From: Pirellulales bacterium
Lineage (GTDB): Bacteria; Planctomycetota; Planctomycetia; Pirellulales; PALSA-1355
Direction: 5' to 3'
Length of the DNA: 64,000 nt
Assembly (NCBI GenBank): GCA_963733035.1
Contig: CAVTBU010000006.1
Location: forward strand, 416,001 to 480,000
How positions within the stretch are numbered: position 1 is the stretch's first letter; every line of letters begins with the position of its first letter. Of this stretch, positions 32,909 through 60,241 are shown piece by piece. Below the pieces are notes generated by a model. The model worked only from the letters and a program-made list of their open reading frames with translations. It made no database searches and had not been told where the DNA came from. Both the position numbers and the translations under genes were made by a program.

Positions 32909-33063
32909 GACACTCCCGGCGATGCGTCGTAAACTCAAATGGGAAGTCGCCCTCCGTTTCAGTATACTTGGCGCGGCGATCCCTGGCGAACTTTGTCCAC
33001 TTGCCCGACGGCCGATTCTGCCGGTTTTGGCCCTTATTCCAACGACCCTTTGCGAGATCTCGC

Positions 33064-33573
33064 ATGAGTCAGGTTCCCGCTGAGCATCGAGCTACCGCCC
33101 CCGATCGGGTCACCTGCGCCGTCGTTACGGTGAGCGATACCCGGACACCCGAGACCGACACCGGCGGCCAGGCGGTCCACGACTTGCTGGTTGCGGCGGG
33201 CTTCGAAGTGACGGACCGGGAAATCATCCGCGACGAACCCGAACTGATGCAACTGCTCCTGGAGCGTTTTCGAGACGACCAGGCGGTCGACGCCGTACTG
33301 CTCACGGGCGGTACCGGCCTGAGCAGCCGCGATCAGACGTACGAGACCGTCAACTCGCTGCTCACCAAGGCGCTGCCCGGCTACGGCGAACTGTTTCGCA
33401 TGCTGAGCTATCAGGAGGTTGGTGCCGCCGCCATGCTCAGTCGAGCCGCAGCCGGACTCATGCAACGCACGGTAGTAATGACCATGCCAGGGTCACCCGG
33501 CGCGGTACGGTTGGCAATGGAAAAGCTCATTGTCCCCGAGCTCCGGCATCTTGTCCGCGAAGCCCGCCGCTAG
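33064..33573 (+). CDS. moaB: Molybdenum cofactor biosynthesis protein, MoaB/MogA family
   Basis: VVTVSDTRT, LTGGTG, LPGYGELFR, AMLSRA, MPGS. Confidence 0.93.
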   Translation: MSQVPAEHRATAPDRVTCAVVTVSDTRTPETDTGGQAVHDLLVAAGFEVTDREIIRDEPELMQLLLERFRDDQAVDAVLLTGGTGLSSRDQTYETVNSLLTKALPGYGELFRMLSYQEVGAAAMLSRAAAGLMQRTVVMTMPGSPGAVRLAMEKLIVPELRHLVREARR

Positions 33574-33720
33574 CACTGGCGCATGGGCAAAACTGCCCTG
33601 GAGCCAACGCGGGCATTCGTTTAACGTACCCGCCCCAATTCTGCCTGCTAGCGACCAGGACTGCAGGAGGTAGTCCACGCAGGGGCAGCTTGAGTTACTC
33701 GTGCCCACGGAGGGGCTTCC

Positions 33721-34704
33721 ATGCGCCGATTCGTGCTGCTCGTTGCCGGGCTAGCGGTTGCCGCCGGCGGCTGGCTATTTTCGCAGAACTTCAAGATCGA
33801 GGGGCTTGAGAATCTTTCGCTCTCGCCACGCGGTGTGGGCAACCCCGATCAAGGCTACAACGCCAATTTGCCAGGGGTCGCACGAAACGGCAATTCCATT
33901 CGCATCGCGTCGTTCAATATCCAGGTGTTCGGCGAGAAGAAGCTGTCGAAACCTCGCGTGACGGCGCTGCTAGCCGAAATTGTGCGTCAGTTCGACATCG
34001 TGGCGATCCAAGAGGTTCGCTCGAAGCAGGACATCATGCCACAGTTCATCGACCAGGTGAACGCGACGGGCAGGCACTACGACTATGTCATTGGTCCGCG
34101 GCTCGGGCGCACGTCGAGCAAGGAACAATATGTATTCGTGTTCGACACGGCTAGCATCGAGATCGACCGCTCGGCACTGTACACTGTTTCCGATCCCGAC
34201 GATCTGTTGCACCGCGAGCCGCTGGTCGGTTGGTTCCGCGTGCGAGGGCCGCCGCCCAACGAAGCCTTCACCTTTTCGCTGGTCAACATTCACACCGATC
34301 CTGACGAGACCAAGCAGGAGCTCGATGCGCTGGCCGACGTATTTCGTGCGGTCCGAGACGACGGGCGGGGCGAAGACGACGTGATCATTCTCGGCGACCT
34401 AAACGTCGATGAGCAGCACCTCGGTCGCCTGGGCCAAATCTCGAACATCCATTGGGCCGTCTCAGGCGTACCCACCAATACCCGGCAAGACAAGCAATAC
34501 GACAACATCGTGTTCTCGGACATTGCCACAACCGAGTATACCGGGCGCTGGGGAGTGTTCGACATGATACGGCAATTCAACCTCACGACCGACGAGGCCC
34601 TGGAGGTTTCGGACCACATGCCAGTCTGGGCTGAGTTCAGTTTGCGCGAGGGCGGTCAGCCGGGCCGGGTGGCCGCGCGTCCGTTTGATTCGGAGACGCG
34701 ATAG
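33721..34704 (+). CDS. Exported/membrane-anchored endonuclease/exonuclease/phosphatase (DNase I-like)
   Basis: IASFNIQ, AIQEV, ILGDLN, YDNI, SDHMPV. Confidence 0.9.
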   Translation: MRRFVLLVAGLAVAAGGWLFSQNFKIEGLENLSLSPRGVGNPDQGYNANLPGVARNGNSIRIASFNIQVFGEKKLSKPRVTALLAEIVRQFDIVAIQEVRSKQDIMPQFIDQVNATGRHYDYVIGPRLGRTSSKEQYVFVFDTASIEIDRSALYTVSDPDDLLHREPLVGWFRVRGPPPNEAFTFSLVNIHTDPDETKQELDALADVFRAVRDDGRGEDDVIILGDLNVDEQHLGRLGQISNIHWAVSGVPTNTRQDKQYDNIVFSDIATTEYTGRWGVFDMIRQFNLTTDEALEVSDHMPVWAEFSLREGGQPGRVAARPFDSETR

Positions 34705-34743
34705 GGTTTTTCGCGCTTGCGGGAATGTCGTAGACTGGCGCGT

Positions 34744-35313
34744 ATGCAGCCCAGTCCAAGATTCTCCGCAGCGCTCGCCTACGCCTCCGAACTGCACGCC
34801 CGTCAACGGCGAAAACGGACAGAAGTTCCCTACGTGGCCCACCTGTTGGCCGTCACGTCCATCGTGCTGGAGCACGGCGGTAGTGAAGACGAAGCGATCG
34901 CCGCCCTGTTACACGACGCGGTGGAAGATCAGGGAGGCGCGCCGCGGCTAGCGGAGATCCGCCAGCGGTTTGGTGCGGCGGTCGCCGACATCGTCGACGG
35001 CTGCACCGATGCCGATATCACCCCCAAGCCGCCCTGGCGCGAGCGCAAGGACAAATACCTCGCGCATCTGCCCACCGCCAGCCGTTCCGTACAGCTCGTT
35101 TCGGCAGCCGATAAGTTGCACAACGTTCGATCGCTTTGCGAGGACTATCGCGTCAGCGGCGAAGACGTATGGCAGCGTTTCAATGGCGGCCGGGAGGGAA
35201 CGCTGTGGTACTACCGCGCCGTGCTCCAGCGTCTCGACAAGCTCGAGGGCACACCGCTAATCGCGCAGTTGACCCGCGCCATCGAAGAAATCGAGCGGTT
35301 GTCCGGGCGTTAA
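34744..35313 (+). CDS. HD-domain protein, small (p)ppGpp hydrolase (Mesh1/SAH-like)
   Basis: HARQRRK...PYVAH, ALLHDAVED, ADKLHN. Confidence 0.88.
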   Translation: MQPSPRFSAALAYASELHARQRRKRTEVPYVAHLLAVTSIVLEHGGSEDEAIAALLHDAVEDQGGAPRLAEIRQRFGAAVADIVDGCTDADITPKPPWRERKDKYLAHLPTASRSVQLVSAADKLHNVRSLCEDYRVSGEDVWQRFNGGREGTLWYYRAVLQRLDKLEGTPLIAQLTRAIEEIERLSGR

Positions 35314-35338
35314 TTCCGTCGGGCATCCATACACGCGC

Positions 35339-35368
35339 TTGAAATCGGGCCAGCCCTAGTGCTAGTTT
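35339..35368 (+). promoter_or_regulatory. Putative sigma70 promoter at the head of the phage-like cluster
   Basis: TTGAAA-N18-TAGTTT with TGn extended -10. Confidence 0.45.
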
Positions 35369-35384
35369 GCCTTTTGTTGATGAC

Positions 35385-35462
35385 GGGTATCGGCAGAGCC
35401 TGAGCGCGACTCAGGTATCCCAAGGGCCCCTTGCTGGTTTTTTTCCAGCAGGGGCCTTTTTT
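35385..35462 (+). promoter_or_regulatory. Structured leader copy 1: conserved box, hairpin and intrinsic terminator
   Basis: GGGTATC-GGCA-GAGCCTGAG-cgcga-CTCAGGT, then GGCCCCTTGCTGG-T7-CCAGCAGGGGCC-T6; same architecture at 44040. Confidence 0.75.
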
Positions 35463-35474
35463 ATTGGGGCAGGC

Positions 35475-36053
35475 ATGATGGCAAGTTCAGATTTGAGATG
35501 CGTCTCCTATCACGATGTGCGCAATCAGATTTGCGACGGCGACCTGCTGTTGTATCGCCGCCGGGGACTGATTTCGATCGCCGGACGCGGCGACCACTCG
35601 CACGCCGCCAAGGCCGCCTGGTGGCGAGACGATCTTTTTTGTCTGGAAGTCCGCGAACTGCACGGAGGACGGGCCGTCACCCTCTCCAGCCAGGTGAGCC
35701 GATTCCCAGGGCACATCGACGTCTACGAAGTGAATCCCGACAACCGCTGGCCGTATTACGATCGCACGGCCGCTTGTGCCGTGATGCGGCGGCTGGCCGG
35801 CTGCCCGTACGGATATGCCGGCGTCGCCGCGGCGGCACTATTGCACTTGCCAGTCGTGCGGCTATTCACCCAGGCCGACGTGCATGATGCCGCGGCATCG
35901 GGCCGCCCTCCGTTTTGCAGCCAGGCATGCGCGATGAGCGACCGCATCGGTGGCGGCGTGGACCCGGTGCCTCACCTGGCGGACCGTCTGACATTGCCGG
36001 CCGATCTGGCACGTAGCCCTTTCTATCGTTACCGCTTTACCCTCACGGCTTGA
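35475..36053 (+). CDS. Permuted papain-like (YiiX/YaeF, NlpC/P60 superfamily) amidase/peptidase
   Basis: GDLLLY, SHAA (His before Cys), GCPY, FCSQ, TLPADL. Confidence 0.7.
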   Translation: MMASSDLRCVSYHDVRNQICDGDLLLYRRRGLISIAGRGDHSHAAKAAWWRDDLFCLEVRELHGGRAVTLSSQVSRFPGHIDVYEVNPDNRWPYYDRTAACAVMRRLAGCPYGYAGVAAAALLHLPVVRLFTQADVHDAAASGRPPFCSQACAMSDRIGGGVDPVPHLADRLTLPADLARSPFYRYRFTLTA

Positions 36054-36056
36054 TCC

Positions 36057-37313
36057 ATGCGACAAATCTCTTTGCTTTTGATCGCTTTGTGCGCGCTCGC
36101 GTTGGTTGATGGAACGTCGGGACAGGCGCGGGCAGTGGATTGCCCGACAGGCAGTTGTCCACTGCAGCCACCGTCTTCGCCAGCTGAAGTCGCCGTCGAC
36201 GCGCGGCCCATTGCACGGATTGAAAACACAACGCCTGCCGCCCGTGCGTATGGTACGGGAACGCTCGTCGACGTCGACGACGACCGAGGACTCGTCGTAA
36301 CCTGCGCTCATCTGTTTCGCGAAGGGGTGGGGACGGTGCGCGTCAGCTTTCCGAACCGCCCGGCGCAAACCGCCCGCGTGTTAAAGGCCGATCACAATGC
36401 CGACCTGGCAGCGCTCGCGATTCCGCCGTTGGAACTCCGGCCAGTGGAAGTTGCCCAGCAGTTCCCGCAGCGCGGCGACATGCTCGTTTCCTGCGGTTAT
36501 GGCGGTGATGGACGGCTGTGGTCTAACCGTGGGCAGGCGCTCGGGTATGTGACCACCGTCGGCAGTTACGGTCGCGAAACGTTGGAGCTGAGCGGCAGTG
36601 CTCGCTTGGGCGATTCGGGTGGTCCGGTGCTCGACGGCAATGGTTACCTGGTGGCCGTGTTGTTTGGAACTGATGGCCGCGTCGTGGATGCCACGTTTTG
36701 CGGCCGCGTGCGAAAGTTCCTCGCCGGCCTCTCGCCTCGATTCGGGCAAGCTCCCAACAGCGATGCGTCGGCATCGAACGACGAGCCTCGCGAAAAACTG
36801 GAAGACGTGCCACCCCGGATTCTGCGGCCGCAACGTTCCCCGCGCGAACAGAATCCAGCCGACGCCGACCCGCTGGCCAAAGCGGCAGACGCGGTAACCG
36901 ACGCCGCCGCGCCCTGGCTCACGGCGAAACTCACGGGGCTGCTCGTGTCTCTGGGAGTTCCCGGCGGAATCGCGGGCGTCGCCGGCGGAGGGCTCGTGTG
37001 GCTGGTCATGCGGCGCGGCAAGAAGCAACTACGAGCGGAAATCGATCGACTCAAAGCTCGCGCCGAGCAGGTACCACCGAACAGCCCGGCCAGCGATTCG
37101 ACTGGCGTACTTGCGTCGAGCACGGCCGGGAGCGTCGTTGAGCGACATCACAACCGTTATGTGGCGTACGAAGCCGGCTCGGTCGACAAGGCCTGGGCGG
37201 CTGCGCACGCCCGGGTCGGCGAGAAGTATCCCGGCGCCGTCCCGTATTTGAAGATCGTCGAAGGGGTCAAAGACCAACTTCTTTCGGGCATCGAAGAACC
37301 ACTTATTTCCTAA
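36057..37313 (+). CDS. Trypsin-like serine protease with signal peptide and C-terminal TM
   Basis: GTGTLV, TCAH, DLAAL, GDSGGP triad motifs; Gly-rich TM followed by RRGKK. Confidence 0.88.
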   Translation: MRQISLLLIALCALALVDGTSGQARAVDCPTGSCPLQPPSSPAEVAVDARPIARIENTTPAARAYGTGTLVDVDDDRGLVVTCAHLFREGVGTVRVSFPNRPAQTARVLKADHNADLAALAIPPLELRPVEVAQQFPQRGDMLVSCGYGGDGRLWSNRGQALGYVTTVGSYGRETLELSGSARLGDSGGPVLDGNGYLVAVLFGTDGRVVDATFCGRVRKFLAGLSPRFGQAPNSDASASNDEPREKLEDVPPRILRPQRSPREQNPADADPLAKAADAVTDAAAPWLTAKLTGLLVSLGVPGGIAGVAGGGLVWLVMRRGKKQLRAEIDRLKARAEQVPPNSPASDSTGVLASSTAGSVVERHHNRYVAYEAGSVDKAWAAAHARVGEKYPGAVPYLKIVEGVKDQLLSGIEEPLIS

Positions 37314-37328
37314 AGGAGAAGTTTACAC

Positions 37329-38189
37329 ATGAGCACCACGCAGCCGATGTTCACCACCGATGAAATCCTTTGGTACGACAACGGGAAATGGGGCGAAGCC
37401 GGATACGCTATCGCCAACCCCAACGGGAAGATATGGACCGCGAATAGCGTAATTTTTCAATTTCACAGCCTGGTTGGCCGCAACATGTTCGAGTTGATGC
37501 ACCGCACCGACGTGCGGTTCTACGGTCCGCCGCACAAACAGTTCTGGTACGACCTGCACCAGCTCATCGTCACCGCCCGCAAGCGGCTGGCCGATCGCCA
37601 GCGGTTGCCGAACGACTCGAACGGGCTGGTCGTCGAACATGCCTCGCCGGCTCCACAGGTATTCATCGCCTGGCCGATTCCGTTCTTCGGCGATCGTGTT
37701 CGCCAGCCCGACATCCGGGAGTACGCCCAGCTCGCGCTGTTGATGCTCTCGGAGATGATGCAGCACAGCGAGAACGAGCTGCCCACGTATATCACCGACA
37801 GTTTCGCGGCCAAGATCGGTCAGTATCTTCGCGAAATTCTGGCGCTCATGGCCACCAAGTACTTCGGCTACACGCGCACCCAGGCCTACGACCCGGCATT
37901 CGCGCTGCAGGACACGGATTTCGCGAACTACGATCCCTCGAAGGTGATGACCAGCGTTGAGATGACCGAGGAGCGTCCGCCAGTGCAGTGGTGGCCGACC
38001 GAATCCGACCTGACGGCGATTCGGGCGATTCCCTACAACGAGGCGATCGTGCTTTCCAAGCGCTGGCCAGCCACGGCTTTGTTGGGTAGCGAAACGTTCG
38101 CGCCTGCGACGTCGAGCGCCGCGGCAACTTCGCCCGGAACCGCGCCGGCCAGCGCCGCCTTCGTCGCTCCGCCCGGACAGGCTCCGTGA
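37329..38189 (+). CDS. Hypothetical protein
   Basis: AAAGGAG RBS, 286-aa intact ORF, no recognised family. Confidence 0.8.
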   Translation: MSTTQPMFTTDEILWYDNGKWGEAGYAIANPNGKIWTANSVIFQFHSLVGRNMFELMHRTDVRFYGPPHKQFWYDLHQLIVTARKRLADRQRLPNDSNGLVVEHASPAPQVFIAWPIPFFGDRVRQPDIREYAQLALLMLSEMMQHSENELPTYITDSFAAKIGQYLREILALMATKYFGYTRTQAYDPAFALQDTDFANYDPSKVMTSVEMTEERPPVQWWPTESDLTAIRAIPYNEAIVLSKRWPATALLGSETFAPATSSAAATSPGTAPASAAFVAPPGQAP

Positions 38190-38220
38190 TCATCATTTTC
38201 GTCGAGGAGAATCAGCAGCC

Positions 38221-38472
38221 ATGGCTTTTCCGGAGTGGAGTTTCATTGTGGGGGCGGCGCTTTCGGTTGCCCTCACGGCAGGACCTTGGATGTTCAAAGT
38301 GCATGCCAAGCTGGCAGTGATCGCCAGCAAGATCATCGACCTGTGCGAGAAGCTCGACCGCACGCAAGACGAGCATCGTCGACTGTGGGAAGTCTGCAGT
38401 CGCCACGAGTCGCGGCTCGACACGCACGACGTGCAGCTCTCGCACATCGCCGAGAGGCTGCGCGGCGACTGA
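38221..38472 (+). CDS. Small single-TM coiled-coil protein (holin/XhlA-like candidate)
   Basis: GAGGAG RBS; N-terminal hydrophobic helix followed by heptad region. Confidence 0.55.
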   Translation: MAFPEWSFIVGAALSVALTAGPWMFKVHAKLAVIASKIIDLCEKLDRTQDEHRRLWEVCSRHESRLDTHDVQLSHIAERLRGD

Positions 38473-38505
38473 TATCGCGCCAGGTACCAACCACTGGAGT
38501 TTCTC

Positions 38506-39063
38506 ATGCAAATTCGCGATCGAATTCGAGAGTTTCGTCGAGTGCGCGCCGATACGTTACGTCCGCACCCGCGCAATTGGCGCACGCATCCCCGCGCACA
38601 GCAGGAAGCTGTGCGCGGCGTACTGGCCGAGATCGGCTATGCCGACGCCCTCTTAGCCCGCGAACTGCCGGATGGCTCGCTGCAACTCATCGACGGCCAC
38701 CTGCGCGCAGAACTTACTCCCGACGCGTTGGTGCCGGTGTTGGTGCTGGACGTCAATGAAGACGAGGCGCTGAAGCTGCTGGTTACGGTTGACCCGCTGG
38801 CTGCCCAGGCCGAAACGGATGCTGCCATGCTGCGGGGACTGTTGGACGAAGTGCATACCGACAACCAGGCCGTGGCCGCGCTGCTCGCGTCGCTGGCCGA
38901 AGGAAATCCGCTGGACGGAACACTCGATGATCCCGCGCCCGAAGACCTCATCGTGCCGGCCAGCTTTCAGGTCGTCGTGCAGTGCACAGACGAGGATGAG
39001 CAACGCGAGGTCTACGAACGGATGAGGTCTGAGGGGTTCAAGTGTCGCGTTCTTTCATTGTGA
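38506..39063 (+). CDS. ParB/Srx N-terminal domain protein
   Basis: LRPHPRNWRTH, LAEIGY, LIDGHLR. Confidence 0.85.
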   Translation: MQIRDRIREFRRVRADTLRPHPRNWRTHPRAQQEAVRGVLAEIGYADALLARELPDGSLQLIDGHLRAELTPDALVPVLVLDVNEDEALKLLVTVDPLAAQAETDAAMLRGLLDEVHTDNQAVAALLASLAEGNPLDGTLDDPAPEDLIVPASFQVVVQCTDEDEQREVYERMRSEGFKCRVLSL

Positions 39064-39070
39064 GTCAGAC

Positions 39071-40178
39071 ATGCCTGTAGTCGAAGCAACCGTTAGTTGT
39101 CCGCTGTACGATTCGTTTCGCGTACAGCAGGTGGCGGGCATGTTCGACGTGCCGCTCGAAGAGCGACCGGCGCAGTCGTTTGCCGTGGACGTGCCCGATG
39201 TGGACGAAGACTGGCAAATCGGTTTGATTGTCGGTCCCTCGGGAAGCGGCAAAACGACGATCGCCCGGCGCGCGCTTGGCAAGTACCTGTGCGATGAACC
39301 CCAATGGCCGACGAACCGGGCCGTCGTCGACTGCTTCGGGCGCTCACGGCGAAGCAAATCACCGGGCTATTGACGGCGGTTGGATTCGGCTCTCCGCCGG
39401 CCTGGGTGCGGCCCTACCGGGTACTCAGCCGCGGAGAACAATTCCGCTGCGACCTGGCACGCGCACTCGGCGTTGCCATGGAGCAAGGCGCTCGCAAACC
39501 GCAGCGCTTCCGCCGCTGGTCGTCTTCGATGAATTCACTAGCGTGGTCGATCGCAATGTCGCGCAAATCGGTTCGGCCGCGATTGCGAAGTCGATTCGCG
39601 GAGGCCGCCTTCCCGGCCGTTTCGTGGCGGTCACCTGTCACTACGACGTCGCCAACTGGCTCGAGCCCGACTGGGTGGTCGACATGGCAACGCGCACCTG
39701 CTCGCGGAGGCGTCTTCGGCGACCGCCCATTGAACTTGAGCTGCACCGCTGCCATCGGCACCTCTGGACGTTGTTTGCGCCGCATCACTATTTGAGCGGA
39801 GCTCTCAGTCCGGGGGCGCATTGCTATGCGGCCTGGTGGCAGGGGCGGCCAGTCTCGTTTTGCGCCACGCTGCCCGTCATCGGCCGCAGAAATCATTGGA
39901 GAATCTCGCGCATCGTGACGCTGCCCGACTATCAGGGCGTGGGCATCGGCATGCAGGTGGCCGAGGCGGTGTGCCAGCTCTATCGCGCGGCTGGCTGCCG
40001 CATGAACGTGACGGCCAGCCACCCGGCCATGATCGCCCATTGCACGCGCTCGCCGCGATGGCGCACCGTGCGCGTGCTGCGCTCGGGTGCCGGCGAAACG
40101 CGACATTTTGTGCGCAGCTACCGTAGTTCGGCAGGGCGGAGCGTGGTGTCCTTCGAGTATCTGGGAAATCGACCGTGA
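39071..40178 (+). CDS. ABC-type ATPase fused to GNAT acetyltransferase, frameshifts near 39340 and 39505
   Basis: [61 protein letters not shown], spread over three frames. Confidence 0.85.
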
Positions 40179-40648
40179 GCGAGCGCAACGAACCGGGCCG
40201 GCCGCCGGTCCTCGACGACGTCAAGAAGGGCATGATTTGCGCCGTGCTGGCGATGGGAGGCACGCGTGTCACGGCCGCGGCCTACGTCGGCTGCCATCCC
40301 GACACGATTCGCAAGACCGAGCTGCGCGACGAGGAATTCGCCCAGAACCTCGAACAGGCAGAGTCAAAGCACGAGGTGTCGCAACTTGCCTATATCAGCA
40401 GCGCCGGCAAGGAAAGCCGACACTGGCGAGCCGCGGCCTGGGCGCTGGAGCGACGCTATCCCGGCCGCTATGGCCAACGACGCCCGGAGTTATTTACGCT
40501 CGACCAGGTATCTCACGTGGTGACCCAATTCGCCAGCGTGATTCTCGATGAAGTGACCGACAGCGTGCAGCGCGAACGTATCCTGGCGCGGCTGACCGTC
40601 TTGTCGGCCAGCCTGCAATCCACGGCCCTCGCGGGAGACAATTCATGA
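40175..40648 (+). CDS. Probable terminase small subunit (N-terminal HTH)
   Basis: GRPP start, AAAYVGCHPDTI HTH, WRAAAWALERRYP; overlaps the large-terminase start. Confidence 0.7.
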   Translation: MSERNEPGRPPVLDDVKKGMICAVLAMGGTRVTAAAYVGCHPDTIRKTELRDEEFAQNLEQAESKHEVSQLAYISSAGKESRHWRAAAWALERRYPGRYGQRRPELFTLDQVSHVVTQFASVILDEVTDSVQRERILARLTVLSASLQSTALAGDNS

Positions 40649-42255
40649 AACTCACCGCCACTTGGAATCGCGAAGGCATTCGCACCGATGCCTGGGCCGA
40701 ACTTGCCTTGCATCTCAGGGCTTGCGTGGCTCGCCGCGTGCGCTGTGAGGGGCGCGACAACCTGCCGCTGCTCGACTGGGGCCGCCGCTACCTGCCGCAC
40801 TATTTCCAAAAGCCCCCCTCGGGCATGCACCAATGGCTGGCCGAACGGCTGGATACGATGACCACCGAGCGCGGCACGAAGCTCAATGCCATTGGGCCGC
40901 GCGGTGGTGCCAAAAGCACGATCGGCACGTTGACCTACGCCCTCCGTGCGGCCGTCGAAGGCTGGGAGCCCTACATTTGGATCGTCTCCGATACCAAACA
41001 GCAAGCGCGCGGACATCTGGAGAACCTCAAGCTCGAACTGACGACCAATAAACTGCTCGCCGACGACTATCCCGCGTCCACCGGCAAGGGTTCCACCTGG
41101 CGCGTCAACGTGGTTCGCCTGAACAACGGGGTCACGATCGAAGCCTTGGGCACGGGCCAGCGTCTGCGCGGAAAACGAAGCGGTGCCAATCGTCCGACGC
41201 TTATCGTGTGCGATGACTTGCAGAATGACGATCACATGCGCTCGGCTATGGCACGCGAGAACTCGTTGCGGTGGTTCGAAGGCGCGTTGCTCAAGTCTGG
41301 CACGCCGCAGACGAACGTCGTCAACCTGGCCACGGCACTCCACCGCGATGCCCTGGCGCTCAAGCTCGATCGCACGCCCGGTTGGACATCGCAAGTGTTC
41401 CAGGCAATCCGCCGCTGGCCCGACAACATGAGCCTGTGGCATGAGTGGGAGCGGATCTACTGCAATCTGGAAGGTGGAGATTCGCCAGCCGCCGCGCGTG
41501 CGTTCTACGAGCGCAACCGCACGGCCATGGACGAGGGGGCCGAATTGTTGTGGCCCGAACTCGAAGACCTCTACACGCTGATGCGGATGCGGGTGGAAGG
41601 TGGACGTACCGCGTTCGAGCGCGAGAAGCAGGGTTCACCACTCAGTCCCGACGCCTGCGAGTGGCCGGCCGACTACTTCGACGAGCACGTGTGGTTCGAC
41701 CGGTGGCCCAGCGACTTGAGGCTCAAAGTCATGGCGCTCGACCCGAGCAAGGGGCGCGACTCCCGGCGGGGCGACTACTCGGCCTTCGTGCTGCTGGGCG
41801 TGGACCGCGACGGGGTGCTCTACGTCGACGCGGACCTCGCGCGACGCCCGACGCCCGAGATGGTGGCCACCGGCGTCGAACTCTGCCGGGTATTTCGTCC
41901 GGACGCGTTTGGCGTCGAGACTAATCAGTTCCAGGAATTGTTGTCCGACGAGTTCGCCGCGGAGTTTCAGCGACAGGAAATGGTCGACGTGCATCCCTGG
42001 GGCATCGACAACCGGGTGAACAAGCCCGTGCGGATCCGGCGGCTTGGCCCCTTTCTCTCGAGTCGCAGGCTGCGATTCAAGAGCGACTCACCGGGTACGC
42101 GACTGCTGCTCGAACAGCTGCAGGAATTTCCGGCCGCCGATCATGACGACGGACCCGACGCGCTGGAGATGGCAATCCGACTGGCGGGAGAACTCCTGGG
42201 CGGTACGGCAGTGGGCGACAGCCTGGGCGATCGGATACCCGTGGGGGCGGGGTAG
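40645..42255 (+). CDS. Terminase large subunit
   Basis: PRGGAKST Walker A, LIVCDD Walker B, FEREKQG, nuclease ALDPSKG...DYSA, VETNQFQ, HDDGPDA. Confidence 0.93.
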   Translation: MKLTATWNREGIRTDAWAELALHLRACVARRVRCEGRDNLPLLDWGRRYLPHYFQKPPSGMHQWLAERLDTMTTERGTKLNAIGPRGGAKSTIGTLTYALRAAVEGWEPYIWIVSDTKQQARGHLENLKLELTTNKLLADDYPASTGKGSTWRVNVVRLNNGVTIEALGTGQRLRGKRSGANRPTLIVCDDLQNDDHMRSAMARENSLRWFEGALLKSGTPQTNVVNLATALHRDALALKLDRTPGWTSQVFQAIRRWPDNMSLWHEWERIYCNLEGGDSPAAARAFYERNRTAMDEGAELLWPELEDLYTLMRMRVEGGRTAFEREKQGSPLSPDACEWPADYFDEHVWFDRWPSDLRLKVMALDPSKGRDSRRGDYSAFVLLGVDRDGVLYVDADLARRPTPEMVATGVELCRVFRPDAFGVETNQFQELLSDEFAAEFQRQEMVDVHPWGIDNRVNKPVRIRRLGPFLSSRRLRFKSDSPGTRLLLEQLQEFPAADHDDGPDALEMAIRLAGELLGGTAVGDSLGDRIPVGAG

Positions 42256-42336
42256 GGGGATGGCAAAAGTCAGAGGGATGAAGGAGGAGAGATACGGAAT
42301 TACTCGCCTTGAAGTCAAGATCATGAGGAGTTTGTG

Positions 42337-43811
42337 ATGAGTAGCAACGGCGTAGTGGAACGTGACGTATCCGAGCGGTTGAACCGTCGATTGGCCGAGG
42401 CCTGGCAAAGTCTGTGGGATAACTTTGTCGATCCGCGAGAGTCGCTCTCTGATGATGGCGGCGATTGGATCGAGCTGGGAGCCGGTGGCGGAGCGACCAC
42501 GGCATCGTTGCCCTTCGGCAATGAGCAGGAGCTTCGTGAGATCCGCACGCAGTGCCGGGCTCTTGCGGTCGGAAACGAGTTCGCGATCAACGGACACGAG
42601 AACCGCATCAGCTTTCTGGTAGGCGCGGGACATACGTATCGCGCTGCTGTGAAGAAGGGGCGGGCGGCTTCCGACGAGTTGGCGAGCCGCGTGCAGGAGG
42701 TGTTGGATCGGTTCATTGCCGAAAACCGGTGGCACCGCCGCCAGCAGGAGATTGTCCGCCGCTACGATCGCGACGGAGAAGTGTTTCTACGTCTGTTCGC
42801 CACGGACGATGGCCAGACGCGTGTTCGTTTCGTCGAGCCTGGGCAGGTGGCCACGCCCAAGGAACTGGTAGGCGACGCGTCTGCGAGCTTCGGCATTCAA
42901 ACTGAGCCCGATGACGTGGAGACGCCCCTGTACTACTACATCGACGGCCGGCCGGTCGACGCTGCCGACGTGCAGCATCGCAAGGCAAACGCCGACGCGA
43001 ACGTCAAACGCGGGTTGCCCCTGTTCTATCCCGTGCGAAAGAACTTGCGACGCGCCGAGAAGCTGCTGCGCAACATGAGCGTCGTGGCAGAGATTCAGTC
43101 GGCGATCGCGTTGGTCAGAAAACATCGCGGCGCAACGCGTGCCAGCGTGCAGCAGTTCGCTTCGTCACAGGCCGACGTCAGCGTCACGTCGCCGGCGACC
43201 GGCCAGACGACCAACTATCGCCGGTTCGGACCGGGCACCATTCTCGACAGCCACGGTGGAATCGAATACGACTTTCCGACCGCGGGGCTCGACGCCGGCA
43301 ACTTCGTGACGATCTTGCAGGCCGAGCTCGCGCGATTGCCAGCCGACTGGTGATGCCTGAGTTCATGCTTACGTCGGATGCTTCGAACTCCAACTATGCT
43401 TCGACGATGGTGGCCGAGGGGCCGGCGATGCGGATGTTTGCCCGCTCGCAGGCCGAACTGGTGCACGACGACTTGTGCGTGATGCACCGCGTGCTGGAGA
43501 ACGCCGTGATCGCCGGTCTGTTGCCGCGTGAAGCGCTGACGCAAATCGAAATTCAGGCCGCACCGCCAACGCTGGCCGTTCGCGACCCGCTAGAAGAAGC
43601 GCAGGCGTTTCGCATCGAGTTCGAATCCGGCATTCTCTCGCCGCAAACTTGGAGCCAGCGGCGAGGCCTGGACTACGACCAGGAACAGACCAACTGGCGG
43701 CAAGCAAGGGACCGCGCCGCGCATGCTCCCGCGCCGCGAAAAAAAATTCCGCGACCGGCGAAAATGGAAATTGAAATCGGGCCAGCACTCCGGGTAACTT
43801 CGGAATCATGA
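42337..43811 (+). CDS. Portal protein, frameshift near 43335
   Basis: LREIRTQCRAL, RDGEVFLR, KRGLP; continues PEFMLTSDASNSNYAS...GILSPQT...GLDYDQE; position after terminase. Confidence 0.88.
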
Positions 43812-43990
43812 CAAGCAAACGGCATTCATCCGCAAACCAAACCAAAGTCGCCCGCGTGCGAGCCGCCTGTGACCAGCTGCTCGACGAAGTGCTGCGGGAA
43901 GGTTTTCACGGGGCTGCCAAAGTGGAGCTGATCATCGCCGACGGCACGATCCAGCGGATCAGCCGCACGGTGGAACGAATCGACAAGTAG
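43808..43990 (+). CDS. 60-aa small protein, DUF2292/YezD-like pattern
   Basis: ATGA overlap with portal stop; GFHGAAKVELIIADGTIQRISRTVER resembles the FG-x-V-x-I-x-DG-x-I-Q-I pattern. Confidence 0.6.
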   Translation: MTSKRHSSANQTKVARVRAACDQLLDEVLREGFHGAAKVELIIADGTIQRISRTVERIDK

Positions 43991-44039
43991 CACGAGCGGA
44001 ACGGGGGAGCGTGGAAACGCTGCCGGCCATTCGTGCGAA

Positions 44040-44119
44040 GGGTATCTCGACGAGCCTGCCAGGGGCGGGTTTCATTGCGGGCCCATTTGCCGGTGCATCC
44101 GGCAGATGGGCCTTTTTTT
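44040..44119 (+). promoter_or_regulatory. Structured leader copy 2: conserved box, hairpin and intrinsic terminator
   Basis: GGGTATC-TCGAC-GAGCCTGCC-agg-GGCGGGTTT, then GGCCCATTTGCCGG-tgcat-CCGGCAGATGGGCC-T7. Confidence 0.75.
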
Positions 44120-44141
44120 GTCTGACAAGGAAACCAAAACG

Positions 44142-45091
44142 ATGGACGAAAACTTGCAAGAGTTCGTAAGTTCGCGGGGCGTCGCGGTGCGGGTCGATCG
44201 CAACCTGGGTGTCATTCGCGGCGTCAAGTTACTGGGGCTCGAATCGCGCAACGGACGCCGCTATCTACCCGCCGCGCTGGCCCAGGCGGCTGCGCTCTAC
44301 GAGGGAGCCAAGGTCAACGTCAACCATCCCAAGGGAAGCCCGTTGGCGGCCCGCGACTATCAGGACCGGCTCGGGTCGATTCGCAGCGTGCGCAGTGCCG
44401 CCGACGGCCTGTTTGGCGACTTGCATTTCAATCCGAAACACGCCCTGGCCGAGCAGCTTGCCTGGGATGCCGAACAGCGCCGGAGAATGTCGGCTTTTCG
44501 CATAACGTCGAAGCCCGCACCGTGCGTCAGGATGGCCGCACGATCGTCGAGGCGATCCTGAAGGTGCAAAGCGTCGATCTGGTGGCCGATCCGGCGACGA
44601 CACACGGTTTGTACGAGGGTCTTGCGCCCGGCGAGGGGGCTTCGACACCGATCACGCTCTCAACAGCAACGCTGGAAGTGCTGCGCGCCGCTCGGCCCGA
44701 CCTGGTCGACGCCGTGCGCGCCGAAACGGCCGCCGAGCTGGTCAGCCTTCGCGAGCACGTCGTTCGCTTGCAGGGCGAAATCGAAGTTCGCCGGCGGCGC
44801 GAAACGGCGCAATCGTTGTTGCGGGAGTACCGACTTCCGGATCCCTCCCTGGCCGAGGCCGCCGCGCGACCGTTGGTCAGCGAGCAGTTCCTGGAAACCG
44901 TGCTGGCTGCGGCCGACGAATCGGCCATGCGACGGTTGGTCGAAGAGCGCGCCCAGCTAATCGCCGCGGCGCGGCTGTGCGAAGGCGAATCGTATCGCGG
45001 CGGCACGCGACCCGTTTCGCGCGAACAGCAGTGGAGCGAGCCGCGCACGCCAGCGCTCGATGCCCGTAGCTTCGCCCGCGCGATTTCCTGA
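44142..45091 (+). CDS. Prohead protease/scaffold, frameshift near 44478
   Basis: SRNGRRY, VNVNHP, GFSHNV (restored frame), SVDLVADPATT; helical C-terminus. Confidence 0.8.
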
Positions 45092-45150
45092 CGCAATTGT
45101 CCAATCAAAATTCCACCTACTCACACGTTTACTCAACGGAGAATCCACAA

Positions 45151-45627
45151 ATGGCCAACACGATGCGCTGGAGATACGGAGAAACCAATCCGGTTGTGCT
45201 GCCAATCGCCGCGGCGACGGTAATTGAGATCGGCGACCTGGTGTACTTGGATACGACGGCCAAGCCGGCCGGCGACCTTCCTTACGGGGCGAGCCTGGCC
45301 GCGACCCAGGAATCGTTCCACGACACGTTCGTGGGCGTGGCGATGCAGCAGTCGCGCACCGGCGATACCGCCGAGATCCGCGTGGCGACGACCGGCGTGT
45401 TTGAGTTTGTCTGTGCGTCGGCCACGTTCGAAGTTGGCGCCCGCATCGGAGCCGACGACAACGCCGGCGCCAGCGCGCTGGTCAACCAACAGGTGATCGC
45501 CGTCAACACGGCCAATCCCGAGCTGTCGATCGGCTACTGCGCCAAGCGCGTCAACCCGGCCGCCACTTCGGTGCTGGTCGACATCGTCGGCACGCTCACT
45601 CACGCCGGACCGCAGGCTGTCGCTTGA
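45151..45627 (+). CDS. Head decoration/cement protein
   Basis: IEIGDLV, FVGVA, IRVATTGVFEF; lies between protease and capsid genes. Confidence 0.65.
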   Translation: MANTMRWRYGETNPVVLPIAAATVIEIGDLVYLDTTAKPAGDLPYGASLAATQESFHDTFVGVAMQQSRTGDTAEIRVATTGVFEFVCASATFEVGARIGADDNAGASALVNQQVIAVNTANPELSIGYCAKRVNPAATSVLVDIVGTLTHAGPQAVA

Positions 45628-45688
45628 GGCGAGGCCGAGGCCGGACAATTTCGGAACGATCTTTCACTCTAGGCAGGAGATACACGAC

Positions 45689-46850
45689 GTGATCAAGATT
45701 AGCGAACTCAAACGCCGCTACGAACTTGACGGTCCGCGGCAGACGATCGCCCACCTGACCGAAGCGCTGCAGCAAGGCCATCTGCGGGCGGAAGATTTCA
45801 GCATTCGCGATCTGGCCGAAGGCCTGGTACCCGACGGCCACGAGTGGGTACGGCTGATGGACCCGCGCAGCGGCGGCAGCGTGCGGTGCTTGAAGCCGGC
45901 GAGGGCGTCGATGCGACGGCCTTTTTGAACATCACCGGCCAGGTCATTTATCAAAGATCATGGAGGCCTACACGCAGGAAGCGTTCGTCGTCTCGAGGCT
46001 GGTCGACACGATTCCGACGCGCTCGACGGCGAGAAGATTCCTGGGCATTGCCGGCCTGACCGACGGAGGACCACGAGATTCGCCCGGGCATGCCGTATCC
46101 GAGCTCGGCTTCGGCGAGGACTACATCGAAACGCCCTCGACCACCAAGCGCGGGTTCATCGTGCCGGTGACGAAGGAGGCGATCTTCTTCGATCGCACGC
46201 ACCTGGTGCTCAGCCGCGCGGCCGAGGTGGGCGAGATGCTGGGCTTGAACAAGGAGAAGCGATTGATCGACCTGGTGATCGGGGCGACGAACAACTACAA
46301 GTGGAACGGCACGACCTACAACACCTACCAGGCCGGCGACGCGCCGTGGATCAACGTCAACGACCGGCAACGAGCTGGTCGACTGGACCAACGTCGACGC
46401 GGCCGAGCAGCTGTTCGCCGACATCCTCGATCCCAACACGGGCGAGCCGGTGCTGGTCACAGGCCACCACGGTGCTGGTCATGCCGGCCTATCGTCACGC
46501 GGCCCATGCGCGTGTTCAACGCGCTGGAAGTTCGCTTCAATCCGGCGCCTCCGACACCACGACCGCTGGCGGCCAATCCGCTGGTCGAACTACCAGGTGG
46601 ACGAAAGCCGGCTGGCGTACGCCGCGTCATGGCCTCCGGCGCGGCGGCCGACGACGCCAAGAAGTGGTGGTTCATGGGCGATTTCCAGAAGGCGTTCGCC
46701 TACATGGAGAACTGGCCGATCACCGTCACGCAATCGCCGCAGGGCAGCGAGGCCGACTTCAACCAGGACATCGTCGTGCGGTTCAAGGCCAGCGAGCGCG
46801 GAGCGGCCGCCGTGCTCAATCCGCGTTACGTCGTCAAGTGCACGGGCTAG
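45689..46850 (+). CDS. Major capsid protein, multiple indels
   Basis: AGGAG RBS; fragments AFLNITGQ, TTKRGFIVPVTKEAIFFD, LVDWTNVDAAEQLF, VLVMP, WWFMGDF...VRFKASERGAAAVLNPR across frames. Confidence 0.8.
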
Positions 46851-46867
46851 CGACGCGCGGGGCGGGC

Positions 46868-46914
46868 ACCGGGGTGCGGCGGGCGGCCAAACACAAGCCG
46901 CCCGCGACCCCGGT
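46868..46914 (+). other. Long GC-rich hairpin after the capsid gene
   Basis: ACCGGGG..GCGGGCGGC-caaacacaa-GCCGCCCGC..CCCCGGT; no U tract. Confidence 0.6.
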
Positions 46915-46958
46915 TCGTCTGAAATGGACAAGGCGCCTCTTGGGAAAGGACAACTCGC

Positions 46959-47174
46959 ATGAGCAACGCAGAGCAGATCGAAACGATCAAAGCCAACACA
47001 CTCGCGCAGATGGCGGCCGTGTCGGCCGAACGTAAACCGAGCTACACCGAGAACGGTCAGACGTTTGCCTGGACCGAATATCTCGAACACTTGCAGCGTC
47101 GCGTCGACTGGTGCAACCAGCAACTCGCCGCCGAAGAGCCATTTGAAATTCCCACACAAGGATACACGCCATGA
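46959..47174 (+). CDS. Head-tail adaptor (gpW-like)
   Basis: 71 aa helix-hairpin-helix pattern (SYTENGQTF...YLEHL) directly after capsid. Confidence 0.55.
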   Translation: MSNAEQIETIKANTLAQMAAVSAERKPSYTENGQTFAWTEYLEHLQRRVDWCNQQLAAEEPFEIPTQGYTP

Positions 47175-47488
47175 ACTTCGTTCCCGATCTCGTGGACGAT
47201 TGTCTGCTGGTTGACGGCACCGAAACGGTCACCTTGCATTCGAGCAGCACCGTGACAGTGGAAGGGGCCAAACGGGGGCTACTTACCCTGGCCGAAATGG
47301 AGTTTCGCCAGGTCGGTCTGGAATCGACCGATCTGGCCTGGAACCTTCCCGCAATAAACCTGGGCAACATTAATCCACGCCAGGGCGACACGATCGAGGA
47401 CTCCACTGGCGTGAATTGGACAATCCTCGGCGCAACGCACACGCCGCTCACCGGTGTTTGGCGGGTCGTGACGCGCAGGCAGCTGTAA
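47171..47488 (+). CDS. Head closure/head-tail joining protein
   Basis: 105 aa beta-rich, PRQGDTI...WTI; gene position. Confidence 0.55.
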   Translation: MNFVPDLVDDCLLVDGTETVTLHSSSTVTVEGAKRGLLTLAEMEFRQVGLESTDLAWNLPAINLGNINPRQGDTIEDSTGVNWTILGATHTPLTGVWRVVTRRQL

Positions 47489-47551
47489 GGCCCTCGGGTC
47501 CGTCATCGTGAACGTCCACGTTGTTCGTTCCTTCCAACGGATGCGCGGTAC

Positions 47552-48084
47552 ATGCCGCGCGATACAAGCATGATCACTATCACAGCAGCCACGCTCGGCG
47601 ACAGTTCGACAATCGCGGCTCTATGGAATGTCAAACGGCTGGACGCCGCCTCGTGTTGGTTTGGCGCCGAGGAAATCGACGACAATTACATTGCGAAGTT
47701 GTTGTCGTCCGGCATGACCCTCGCGTTGCGCGAGTTGATGGCTTGCCTGTCGGGTTTGGCCTCTGGTGTCCATCTGGAAACGAAGCCCGGCTCGTGGCCC
47801 TCGCCGCGGACGACGAGGAAGTGTACTACCGGCTGATGGCCGAGTACTGCCAGTGGGGAACTGCCTCGAATCGACCGACGGGCTTTGCCGAGTTGGGAAC
47901 CGCGGCCACGACCGAGCGCGCACGAATGGATGCCCTTGGCGTGATCACGTACACCGCGATTGGCTTCGAGCCGCTCTTGCCCGGACAAGCGGCCGACCAA
48001 CGGGTTCCGCAACTACTGCGTGCCGAATGCGATCTGACGCTGCTCACCGCGGCTGTCGGTAGTCGGTTGGAGGACCTGTCGTGA
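47552..48084 (+). CDS. Hypothetical protein, weak GNAT-like N-terminus, frameshift near 47725
   Basis: ITAATLGDSSTIAALWN... joins ARVDGLPVGFGLW...; stop overlaps next start. Confidence 0.5.
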
Positions 48085-49394
48085 GCCAACAACTCGTCCT
48101 GCAACCGGACTCCGCAGCCGGTGTTGACGTCCATATCAGCAGTGGTTCGAACGCAACCGTCAACCTCGGGGGGGCGTCCGTTGCGATCATCGGCACCTCC
48201 CAGGCATCGAAGGCGCTCGCCTTTTACCGACTCCTCTTGCGGTTCGACCTCGCTGCGTTTCCTCCGGGCGCGGTCGTAACCGGCGCGACATTGACGCTCA
48301 CCTCGGCCGCGTCGCTCAATGCGGTTGGGCTCACGTTCTATGCCTATCGTTTGACACAGGATGATTGGACCGAGTTTGGGGCTACCTGGAATGTTTACGA
48401 CGGGGTGCACGCTTGGCAGAACGCAGGTGGCGACGTCACGACGGTGGGAGCCGCTTCGGAAAACCTATCCGCTGGCGACGCCGATCTGGTGTTTGCATCC
48501 TTGGCGGTGCTGGTTGCTGACGCGGTTTCGAATCGGAACGGGGTGCTCGATTTGATGGTGGTGGGTCCCGAAACGAGCGAGTCGAGCTATCTGGCAGTTT
48601 CCACTTCGGACGAGTCCTTGGCCGATCGCCGTCCCAAGTTGACCATCACGTACGCCGCCCCTCCCGGCCTGAGCATCGAAGATCACAGTGACGCCTCGGG
48701 GGCCACGGCCACGATTGTTGCCGTGGATCCGGAGGCCACGACAACGGTACTGGTTCTCGCGTTTGAGGGCGATTTGGGAACCGGAGCGTGGAGCGTCGCC
48801 GGTTCCGTCGAGGGAAACGGCGAGGTGCTGCTGACCCTCTCCCCCGGGCACTACTTTGCTTACGCCGTTTCGAGCATTGGCAGTGTGCGGGTGCCGTCGC
48901 CTGTCGTGTACTTCGTCGTCACCGATGGACTCGAGTCCATCCACACGCGCTGTCTGGCGGCCGTGCAAGCCCGCATACGACTCTTGGGATTGGCGGGTAT
49001 CGACAGCGAGCACGTGCTGATCGAAAAAGTTCCGGCCGGGCGTAATCTGTCGACCGCCATTGGGCTGCCCGCCATCGTGCTCTCTCCGGAACGGGCGGCC
49101 ATGCCGGCCGCCGAGGGAACCAACGGTGCAGACGACGTCCACTACGGCGTGCTGGTGTCGATCTTTGATCGCGACAACCAGGAGCCCTCGCTTGGGGCGA
49201 ACCTCGACCGTCACCTGTTGTGGCGGCAGCAAATCGCCCGGGCATTTCGAAATCAGCGGCTACCGGGTGTGCCGGAAGTCATCAACTCGGAAGTCGAGCC
49301 GGCCGAGGGACTGCTCGACGAGGCGTGGAAACGCGAACTGATGACCACCGCCATGCGGTTGCGGTTTACCAGTCGCGAATCGCGGGGATTTTAA
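48081..49394 (+). CDS. DNRLRE (CBM96-like) domain fused to a putative tail-completion domain
   Basis: LQPD..VDVHI, LLRFDLAAFPPGAVVTGATLTL, WTEFGATWN, AGGD, RPKLTITY; C-terminal LPAIVL...YGVLV domain just before tail tube. Confidence 0.7.
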   Translation: MSQQLVLQPDSAAGVDVHISSGSNATVNLGGASVAIIGTSQASKALAFYRLLLRFDLAAFPPGAVVTGATLTLTSAASLNAVGLTFYAYRLTQDDWTEFGATWNVYDGVHAWQNAGGDVTTVGAASENLSAGDADLVFASLAVLVADAVSNRNGVLDLMVVGPETSESSYLAVSTSDESLADRRPKLTITYAAPPGLSIEDHSDASGATATIVAVDPEATTTVLVLAFEGDLGTGAWSVAGSVEGNGEVLLTLSPGHYFAYAVSSIGSVRVPSPVVYFVVTDGLESIHTRCLAAVQARIRLLGLAGIDSEHVLIEKVPAGRNLSTAIGLPAIVLSPERAAMPAAEGTNGADDVHYGVLVSIFDRDNQEPSLGANLDRHLLWRQQIARAFRNQRLPGVPEVINSEVEPAEGLLDEAWKRELMTTAMRLRFTSRESRGF

Positions 49395-49413
49395 ATAGGA
49401 GACAAACCAAACC

Positions 49414-50334: not shown

Positions 50335-50358
50335 TTCTCCCTTCAAGACGGATGAATC

Positions 50359-51087: not shown

Positions 51088-51126
51088 TGACTAACACATC
51101 AACTTCATAGGTAATTCAACCGACAC

Positions 51127-60117: not shown

Positions 60118-60241
60118 GATCCATTCCTCGCACGGGTTCGTAAACGTTTATTTCAACCTAACAGAAGCGCCTGCCTGGCGTGAAGGGTGCGCAGCCAGAT
60201 ATAACGGCGGTCCATTGGTGCCCTTCGAGGATCGTTGTACG

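Follow-up and report, generated by a model that had tools for sequence, protein, structure and literature searches.

A stretch of 64,000 nucleotides (nt) from the genome of a Pirellulales bacterium (assembly GCA_963733035.1, contig CAVTBU010000006.1, positions 416,001 to 480,000), here called the window, carries a phage-like head-tail gene cluster at 35475-59249, with all of its genes on the plus strand. Two sequences on the same strand, at 35385-35462 before the first cluster gene and at 44040-44119 before the head-morphogenesis block, share a layout of a short box, a hairpin and a transcription terminator and are referred to as leader copy 1 and leader copy 2. They score 63.3 bits (E 5.4e-14) and 63.4 bits (E 5.1e-14), respectively, against a covariance model of the element. 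It is confirmed that the two stretches are true copies of one structured, conserved cis element on the transcribed strand.

Both copies begin with GGGTATC (box 1), followed by a linker of 4 or 5 nt, a first hairpin (P1) that opens with GAGCCTG and closes with (C/G)GGT(A/T)TC, and a 3' half made up of a GGGCCC-based stem and then 6 or 7 T. In copy 1, box 1 is at 35385-35391 and is separated by the linker GGCA (J, 35392-35395) from P1 (GAGCCTGAG/CTCAGGTATC, 35396-35419), which contains a second box, GGTATC, within its 3' arm (box 2, 35414-35419). A further J segment at 35420-35423 lies between P1 and the terminator (35424-35456), the stem arms of which are 35424-35437 and 35445-35456, and the U tract is the run of six T at 35457-35462. 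The corresponding parts of copy 2 are box 1 at 44040-44046, the linker TCGAC (J, 44047-44051), P1 (GAGCCTGCC/GGCGGGTTTC, 44052-44073), J at 44074-44078, and a terminator at 44079-44112 with stem arms at 44079-44093 and 44099-44112 and a U tract of seven T at 44113-44119. The T run ends 12 nt before the ATG at 35475 in copy 1 and 22 nt before the ATG at 44142 in copy 2, and a U tract this close to the ATG leaves no space for a further promoter between T run and start codon. The sequence-only reading of the window, made from its letters and open reading frames (ORFs), had described this shared layout, terminators 12 to 22 nt before an ATG, a putative promoter just upstream of copy 1 and stem pairing kept despite differing sequence. 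All of these are borne out.

Each copy is predicted to fold into two hairpins, at -39.6 kcal/mol for copy 1 and -43.6 kcal/mol for copy 2 (z-scores of -4.2 and -4.7), and none of 200 shuffles folds as well as either. The two terminators rank first and second in a terminator scan of 33000-52000 and have the 12-15 bp G+C-rich stems followed by T6 or T7 of intrinsic terminators, termination itself being a prediction from these features. The pattern GGGTATC-N3-6-GAGCCTG has two matches in the window against none in 100 shuffles, and exactly two in the whole 6.6 Mb genome, where the reversed pattern, used as a control, has none.

The pairing is maintained across relatives by compensating changes. 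Among 105 distinct sequences, 95.5% of the cells in P1 and the terminator are paired, compared to 78.8% with shuffled partners and 33-47% when the partners are slid by 1-3 columns. Two-sided changes are found in 17 of the 21 pairs; both hairpins covary, the terminator stem at 14 of its 16 pairs. At its base P1 hardly varies in sequence, except that the whole unit changes between GCCUG/CAGGU and GCUCG/CGAGU; the switching pairs are CG in 72, UA in 28 and UG in 5 sequences at one position and UA in 58, CG in 30 and UG in 16 at the other. The apical part of P1 ranges from 2 to 39 nt, and this variation in length speaks for a hairpin in the RNA and against a DNA site of fixed spacing. For the 44 sequences that were found by the model, not by a pattern, the counts are G40 G44 G44 U44 A42 U42 C37 in box 1 and U42 A38 U43 C41 in the bases after P1. 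A by-eye look found no conserved start codon in the approximately 90-nt leader, and attenuation by a leader peptide was set aside on this basis.

The unit GGUAUC-C-N-N-A-GAGCC is repeated, imperfectly and in tandem, along the element. When the alignment is cut before the 3' arm of the terminator, RNAalifold finds an alternative helix, P0, which encloses P1 and in which box 1 pairs with the GAGCC that opens the terminator (35386-35391 with 35424-35428 in copy 1; 44041-44046 with 44079-44083 in copy 2). P0 uses the first five bases of the terminator 5' arm and excludes the terminator base. In 100 distinct sequences, 60 of them order-wide, each of the five P0 pairs holds in at least 97 cells: alignment columns 2-90 (GC in 97), 3-89 (GC in 99), 4-88 (UG in 95, CG in 5), 6-87 (UA in 85, UG in 12, CG in 2) and 7-86 (CG in 87, UG in 6, UA in 5, unpaired in 2). 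A possible sixth pair, 1-91, does not hold, being unpaired in 45 of 99 cells. Of the 7 sequences in which the terminator begins with A (column 86), 5 have U at the end of box 1 (column 7); of the other 93, 6 do (Fisher 1.2e-4, kinship uncorrected). The five sequences with this U-A pair represent four families, and none of them has a changed box 2, which indicates that box 1 tracks the terminator and not its twin. A double change, GGGUACU with AGGCC, is present in two sequences from two genera.

P0 and the P1 base are the same duplex, GAGCC / GGU(A)UC, with a bulged A that 95 and 86 of the 100 sequences retain. Between them lies an internal loop of 4-5 nt per side (in 95 and 94 of 100), mostly with C first and A last and, viewed from this loop, P0 and the P1 base are related by a two-fold axis. 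With P0 enforced, the predicted energies are -28.9 kcal/mol for copy 1 and -34.2 kcal/mol for copy 2, against the values of the terminator fold given above, and the residual upper hairpin ends five bases before the U tract. The minimum-energy structure of nascent copy 2, cut before the 3' arm, is P0 with P1. A conserved, covarying helix that excludes the terminator base would be the anatomy of an attenuation or antitermination switch.

The sequence-only reading had proposed a covariance model and searches of Rfam and of planctomycete genomes, and had let its case depend on conservation of the box and first hairpin at orthologous loci. Rfam 15 has no matches at gathering thresholds across the whole window, and two 3-kb loci searched at E values up to 10 returned five chance-level rows (12-22 bits against thresholds of 70-100) with no bacterial cis-regulator among them. 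The covariance model, built from 54 pattern-selected sequences, identifies the leader in all 33 genomes of the family and, at E values up to 1e-6, in 75 of the 151 genomes sampled from the order, these last falling in 21 of its 30 families. Outside the order, only 2 weak matches were found in 150 genomes from the rest of the phylum. Absences in these large searches are soft because stricter filters were used and 30 candidates were scored per genome.

Pairs of leaders are a recurrent arrangement. In the 33 family genomes, a search allowing one mismatch to the pattern showed that, in several genera, exact matches come in twos on the same strand at distances of 9-18 kb, and same-strand pairs 6-18 kb apart are present in genomes of at least 10 further families (for example those numbered G203, G209, G242, G257, G260, G262, G281, G297, G317 and G233). 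A longer pattern, applied to one genome per species, found at least 118 loci, mostly labelled Planctomycetota, Pirellulales or Thermoguttaceae. Scattered pattern matches in unrelated taxa are without a terminator and fit the chance expectation of a few dozen that had been computed beforehand. An ORF of at least 50 amino acids (aa) starts within 120 nt of 74 of the 80 elements examined. Some genomes, including one metagenome-assembled genome (loci L043, L053, L064, L067, L074, L080, L086, L090, L099, L103 and L120) and G306, have at least 10 leaders that are nearly identical, and several of these sit at the ends of contigs, which suggests that repeated leader-headed units break assemblies.

The sequence-only reading had tied the element to this cluster, and here it fell short. 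The genome of the window (G000) has 7 strong model copies, with E values of 5e-14 to 5e-10 and the next match at E 0.002, and all 7 are in the same orientation as, and directly before, an ORF. The five copies outside the window (C5:1083221, C5:2648302, C5:1451859, C6:237900 and C6:250009, by contig and position) were missed by the exact pattern because they have the GCUCG/CGAGU form of the P1 base or the box GGGUAUU. Two of them head a gene for a 256-aa protein followed by one for a protein of approximately 500 aa. The N-terminal parts of these longer proteins are 83-89% identical over 330-360 residues and the C-termini differ, being Tox-REase-5 with Imm52 in one and an AHH nuclease with Imm11 in the other. 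Two more head a second family, the partner protein carrying Tox-REase-2 or a 66%-identical homolog, and one heads a 454-aa relative of the N-terminal domain of that second family. From their gene content, the leader-headed loci outside the cluster are classical polymorphic toxin cassettes.

The same association recurs in relatives. Among 40 further non-cluster matches hand-picked from the family list, 30 have homologs of the cassette proteins downstream within 3 kb, 3 have cluster-start genes there and for 7 nothing was recognised. For 60 order-level matches, examined with only approximately 900 nt of downstream sequence, 16 are followed by the copy 2 gene pair, 7 by cluster-start genes, 1 by a toxin-family protein and 1 by a ParB-like protein, and 35 had no BLAST match.

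Copy 1 is just downstream of a promoter-like sequence at 35339-35368 (plus strand), with TTGAAA at 35339-35344, an 18-nt spacer containing TCGGGCCA, and TGC-TAGTTT (TAGTTT at 35363-35368). The predicted transcription start is approximately 7 nt past 35368, and box 1 would then begin near +10. Most cluster-start leaders in relatives have TTGAAA, TTGCAA or TTGACA, 17-18 nt, TGnTAnnnT and then approximately 14 nt to the box, and toxin-type leaders have two additional small hairpins between promoter and box. A second promoter-like sequence at 43771-43800 (plus strand; TTGAAA, 18 nt, TAACTT) precedes a conserved ORF of 60 aa, g60, at 43808-43990 (plus strand), which lies between this promoter and copy 2 and is present at 33 loci. 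The -10 hexamer ends 7 nt before the g60 ATG, so the g60 mRNA is probably leaderless; its transcript would end by default at the copy 2 terminator. The same arrangement of promoter and ATG was seen by eye in 11 of 12 relatives' loci, the twelfth (L042) being too short upstream. The nearest atlas clusters to g60 are unnamed phage and planctomycete proteins, and DUF2292 is a weak lead.

The cluster thus appears to consist of two leader-gated units: a promoter, leader 1 and genes, then a promoter, g60, leader 2 and genes. The sequence-only reading had one leader repeat gating both operon halves; there is a leader before each half, but copy 2 is not simply internal to an operon, since it has its own consensus promoter and the leaderless g60. 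A conserved motif of the spacer, (T/C)(A/G)GGCCA, lies just past the -35 sequence. The pattern TTGAAA-N2-3-GG(C/T)CA has 36 matches in the genome, some before unrelated genes, such as that for a thiamine pyrophosphate enzyme, and some in a multi-copy repeat. This genome-wide occurrence led to rejection of the GGGCCA spacer motif as a regulon-specific operator or a Q/AlpA/GafZ-type loading site; it looks like a general promoter feature of the lineage. Promoter-like sites with the motif include those at C4:151177, C5:198093 and C7:162384 of G000, and a stretch of approximately 75 nt that opens with such a site has at least 9 identical copies in the genome. Leader promoters of consensus form, shared with ordinary genes, would fit control after initiation.

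The phage-like cluster has matches to a trypsin-like peptidase, a ParB-like protein, TerS, TerL and portal ahead of copy 2, and to decoration, capsid and tail tube proteins after it. Its first gene (35475-36053, plus strand), 12 nt past the U tract, encodes 192 aa without a Pfam match, and homologs follow the leader in 35 of the 199 leader loci of relatives that were used for neighbour-gene counts. The first gene after copy 2 (44142-44561, plus strand) encodes 139 aa, is present at 31 loci and heads the head-morphogenesis block, which includes the decoration (45097-45627) and capsid (45960-46850) genes, both on the plus strand. The portal gene is present as two overlapping ORFs (42334-43353 and 43350-43811) that match the N-terminal and C-terminal parts of one PHROG portal family, and a phrog_11143 gene with a GNAT domain is split over two frames (39071-39373 and 39228-40178); each may be a frameshift, a sequencing error or a genuine split. 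Immediately beyond the cluster, 59299-60571 contains a PolB-type 3'-5' exonuclease-like gene on the minus strand and a gene with a TfoX_N domain. TfoX proteins are regulators of DNA uptake in other bacteria, and this gene is an odd neighbour for a particle cluster.

Upstream, the genes ending by 35313 look cellular, with matches to MoCF, Exo_endo_phos and an HD hydrolase. The HD gene flanks leader 1 in 27 of the 199 loci and Exo_endo_phos in 21, although the HD gene itself matches the phage family phrog_990. None of the 46 ORFs scanned matches an integrase, a repressor or a replication protein. This gene content and the upstream flanks shared with relatives would fit a domesticated element, resembling a gene transfer agent (GTA), that has been kept at one site. 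Of 14 pattern matches in IMG/VR, 6 are true elements, on contigs of 6.5-26 kb that resemble this same cluster, and among the 14 there is no evidence of a complete free-phage genome with the leader. A reading of the two copies as att sites or a repeat element was rejected, as copy 2 lies within the normal TerL-portal-head order and the structure covaries.

Several proteins were examined as possible effectors of the leader. A protein of approximately 135 aa with a helix-turn-helix (HTH) and a four-cysteine zinc ribbon is encoded by the first gene after leader 1 in many families; in the genome of the window its gene is at C5:1733199, without a leader. Its Pfam matches are sub-threshold and are only to HTH and phage zinc-finger families, and its structure model (mean predicted local distance difference test, pLDDT, 81.9; predicted template modelling score, pTM, 0.35) has a best Foldseek E value of 0.19 against the PDB, to generic HTH domains. 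As to a Q-, AlpA- or GafZ-like identity, Foldseek gave these generic matches only, and no search with Q, AlpA or GafZ profiles was made. Among the 151 genomes of the order, the HTH-zinc-ribbon protein and the RNA are both present in 66, the RNA only in 9, the protein only in 33 and neither in 43, an association that is suggestive at most, being confounded by kinship and by the stricter RNA filters. For g60 the corresponding numbers are 63 with both, 12 with the RNA only, 12 with g60 only and 64 with neither, which is to be expected because g60 adjoins copy 2; g60 was not found in three family genomes of 96-99% completeness that have several leaders (G001, G017 and G027).

Neither protein is convincing as the effector, given the generic HTH matches and the 9 RNA-carrying genomes in which the HTH-zinc-ribbon protein was not found, and the three near-complete, leader-bearing genomes in which g60 was not found. 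A NusG paralog, the second and weaker NusG match of the genome (C5:1319984-1320208, 33.6 bits), was rejected: the operon that it heads is one for polysaccharide synthesis, and the nearest leader is 130 kb away; by operon position this gene resembles the specialised paralogs of the RfaH/UpxY type. CAT_RBD (PF03123) has no match in the 92%-complete genome, and the control search matched in 4 of 14 genomes. ANTAR (PF03861) also has no match, but the same search matched in none of the 14 control genomes.

Taken together, these features make it probable, though well short of certain, that each copy acts in cis as a leader for transcription attenuation that can take either of two folds but not both, and in which an effector-locked P0-P1 structure gives read-through. 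What is observed is the sequence, how far it is conserved, its covariation and its gene context; that polymerase terminates and reads through there, in which order the RNA folds and what kind of effector acts are inferred, as follows. A strong promoter of housekeeping type would fire and the nascent RNA would form P1 first and then P0, by pairing of the GGUAUC of box 1 with the GAGCC of the terminator 5' arm. As the 3' arm of the terminator emerges, the full stem, predicted to be approximately 10 kcal/mol more stable, would displace box 1, and RNA polymerase would stop at the U tract, 12-22 nt short of the start codon, which would make off the default state. An effector that locks the P0-P1 fold would prevent the bottom of the terminator stem from forming beside the U tract, and the polymerase would then read into the genes. 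P0 and the P1 base, flanking an internal loop of 4-5 by 4-5 nt, would present a pseudo-two-fold symmetric target. The effector is most likely to be a dimeric RNA-binding protein, because it is the two identical helical modules with their bulged A that are conserved and not the junction.

Several points weigh against this two-state switch. P0 has only 5 pairs, most of its columns hardly vary, and its covariation comes down to 5 sequences at one pair and 2 at another. There is a C-A mismatch in 2 of 100 sequences and, in the pattern-derived set, a C-C at the terminal P0 pair in 7 of 105. The alignments were fitted to a model made from pattern-selected sequences. The minimum fold of nascent copy 1 has a slightly different register, with P0 1.2 kcal/mol above a near-identical one. 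No effector emerged among the HTH-zinc-ribbon protein, g60, the NusG paralog and the CAT_RBD candidates tested, and two leader-linked proteins are each missing from several near-complete genomes that carry the leader. Termination and regulated read-through are also deduced from sequence and not from transcripts; a search for sequencing runs listed a single soil DNA run, sharing 6% of the words, and no RNA run.

The same two states could be set by a small molecule or second messenger, with P0, the loop and P1 as the aptamer and the terminator as the expression platform of an ON riboswitch. The closing helix does share its 3' strand with the terminator, as in transcriptional ON riboswitches, the internal loop has a regular length with mostly C first and A last, no protein candidate stood up, and some aptamers for symmetric ligands are likewise pseudo-symmetric. 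This version is nevertheless thought unlikely, as the inner bases of the loop vary freely, its length runs from 4 to 7 nt and the strongest conservation is in the helices and the bulged A rather than in the junction. The aptamer would also be very small, and the controlled genes, for phage-like particles, nuclease toxins and the HTH protein, are not metabolic or transport genes. That the leader is no switch, each copy being instead a small RNA gene or a fixed terminator, insulator or RNA-stability module with downstream expression by constant leak, is highly improbable. A promoter, a transcript of approximately 90 nt with a single-stranded 5' box and a terminator is the layout of multi-copy small RNAs with 5' seeds, and several genomes have 10 or more copies; against this, box 1 covaries with the terminator that follows it in the same RNA, what precedes copy 2 is a translated ORF and not a transcription start, and the leaders stand consistently in the same orientation directly before an ORF (all 7 in this genome, 74 of 80 with an ORF nearby).

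A third alternative would make the leader a recruitment site for processive antitermination, whether of nut/N, put or Q/AlpA/GafZ type, where the loaded factor then ignores later terminators. Two copies per cluster recall nutL and nutR, or the leader and spacer boxA of rrn operons, and the gene for the HTH-zinc-ribbon protein is first after leader 1 in many families, with a presence that correlates with that of the RNA. Control of this kind is known for phage-like clusters: in the Caulobacter GTA cluster, GafZ is needed for polymerase to get past the terminator after the first gene (PMC11150451). However, a factor loaded at copy 1 would need no second full element with its own promoter 8.6 kb downstream, and a recruitment site does not require the terminator to be an integral covarying partner of box 1. 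The P1 loops of 2 to 39 nt are unlike a boxB-type loop, the GGGCCA promoter-spacer motif is also found before ordinary genes, and the HTH-zinc-ribbon model matches generic HTH domains only, the protein being absent from the search results of 9 RNA-carrying genomes. This alternative is accordingly considered improbable.

The sequence-only reading had described a cis-regulatory attenuation or antitermination element analogous to the nut or put sites. The first part stands, in that this is a conserved, structured cis element before start codons with two covarying hairpins and a conserved alternative helix; for a processive mechanism of nut/put type there is no specific sign. A lambdoid nut site is made up of boxA and a boxB hairpin whose loop is fixed at 5 nt, and it contains no terminator. 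Like lambda nut and HK022 put, the leader is a short conserved signal of a box and hairpin(s) that occurs twice per phage-type gene set and is tied to terminator passage. Those sites are without a terminator, act processively and have defined loops, whereas here the loop length is variable and the terminator is a conserved part of the element that competes with box 1 by pairing with it, so that the analogy is not specifically supported.

Among known leaders, those of the BglG/SacY (RAT), AmiR/NasR/EutV (ANTAR), HutP and GlpP systems have an antiterminator that overlaps the 5' arm of an intrinsic terminator, as here; their promoter is unregulated and control follows initiation, through a protein that binds the RNA and is usually a dimer, as is proposed here. 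There is no likeness in sequence or structure, the present element having instead a 5-bp helix that closes a second hairpin and two identical GAGCC/GGU(A)UC modules. The CAT_RBD domain of the BglG/SacY system is without a match in this genome. In ANTAR-type leaders, two hairpins stand in tandem, each with a loop of six nucleotides, and the second overlaps the terminator; here the apical part of P1 is 2 to 39 nt and the second hairpin is the terminator and not a small hexaloop. Transcriptional ON riboswitches of the adenine pbuE type also have a closing helix that shares a strand with the terminator, with the order of folding decisive, but the would-be aptamer here is tiny, its loop is variable, the genes are phage-like and toxin genes, and there is no Rfam match. 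In B. subtilis pyrG, the 5' end of the transcript, extended by reiterative addition of G at low CTP, pairs with the 5' strand of the terminator and blocks termination. The pairing is similar here, but the box is templated and conserved and begins approximately 10 nt or more from the predicted start.

The biology of lethal phage-like clusters silenced by early terminators and released by antitermination is shared with GafYZ of the Caulobacter GTA (PMC11150451), with lambda Q and with AlpA of P. aeruginosa. These factors load at a DNA site between the -35 and -10 sequences, with no RNA element and with terminators that have no conserved box, whereas here the conserved spacer motif occurs genome-wide and is not specific to a regulon. 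By analogy, the nearest relatives would be, by function, the protein- or ligand-controlled terminator/antiterminator leaders and, by biology, the Caulobacter GTA cluster. A description of this motif was not found in the literature searched or in Rfam 15. A catalogue of phage RNA candidates (PMC10690425) has 14 with Planctomycetia hosts, all marked as terminator-less in its table, although the leader may yet correspond to one of them. Judged from its sequences, this is a real, new and widespread family of leader RNA with good covariation support and a plausible two-state mechanism.

A wider proposal, tentative and rather doubtful, is that this pseudo-two-fold symmetric switch reads one cellular signal, which would be a dimeric protein or else a symmetric second messenger, and co-induces the GTA-like cluster and the nuclease-toxin operons across much of the order.

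Gene regulation in the Planctomycetota is almost unexplored, and the leader would offer a compact switch for which mutations give clear predictions. The regulon it marks joins a conserved phage-like particle cluster to polymorphic toxin loci, and in metagenome-assembled genomes it may help to flag where such loci lie. Should the cluster prove to be a gene transfer agent, the leader would be what controls it, none being known so far in this phylum. If the reading as a symmetric switch is true, there would be a single regulon of 'self-sacrifice and warfare' wired wholly at the level of transcription termination.

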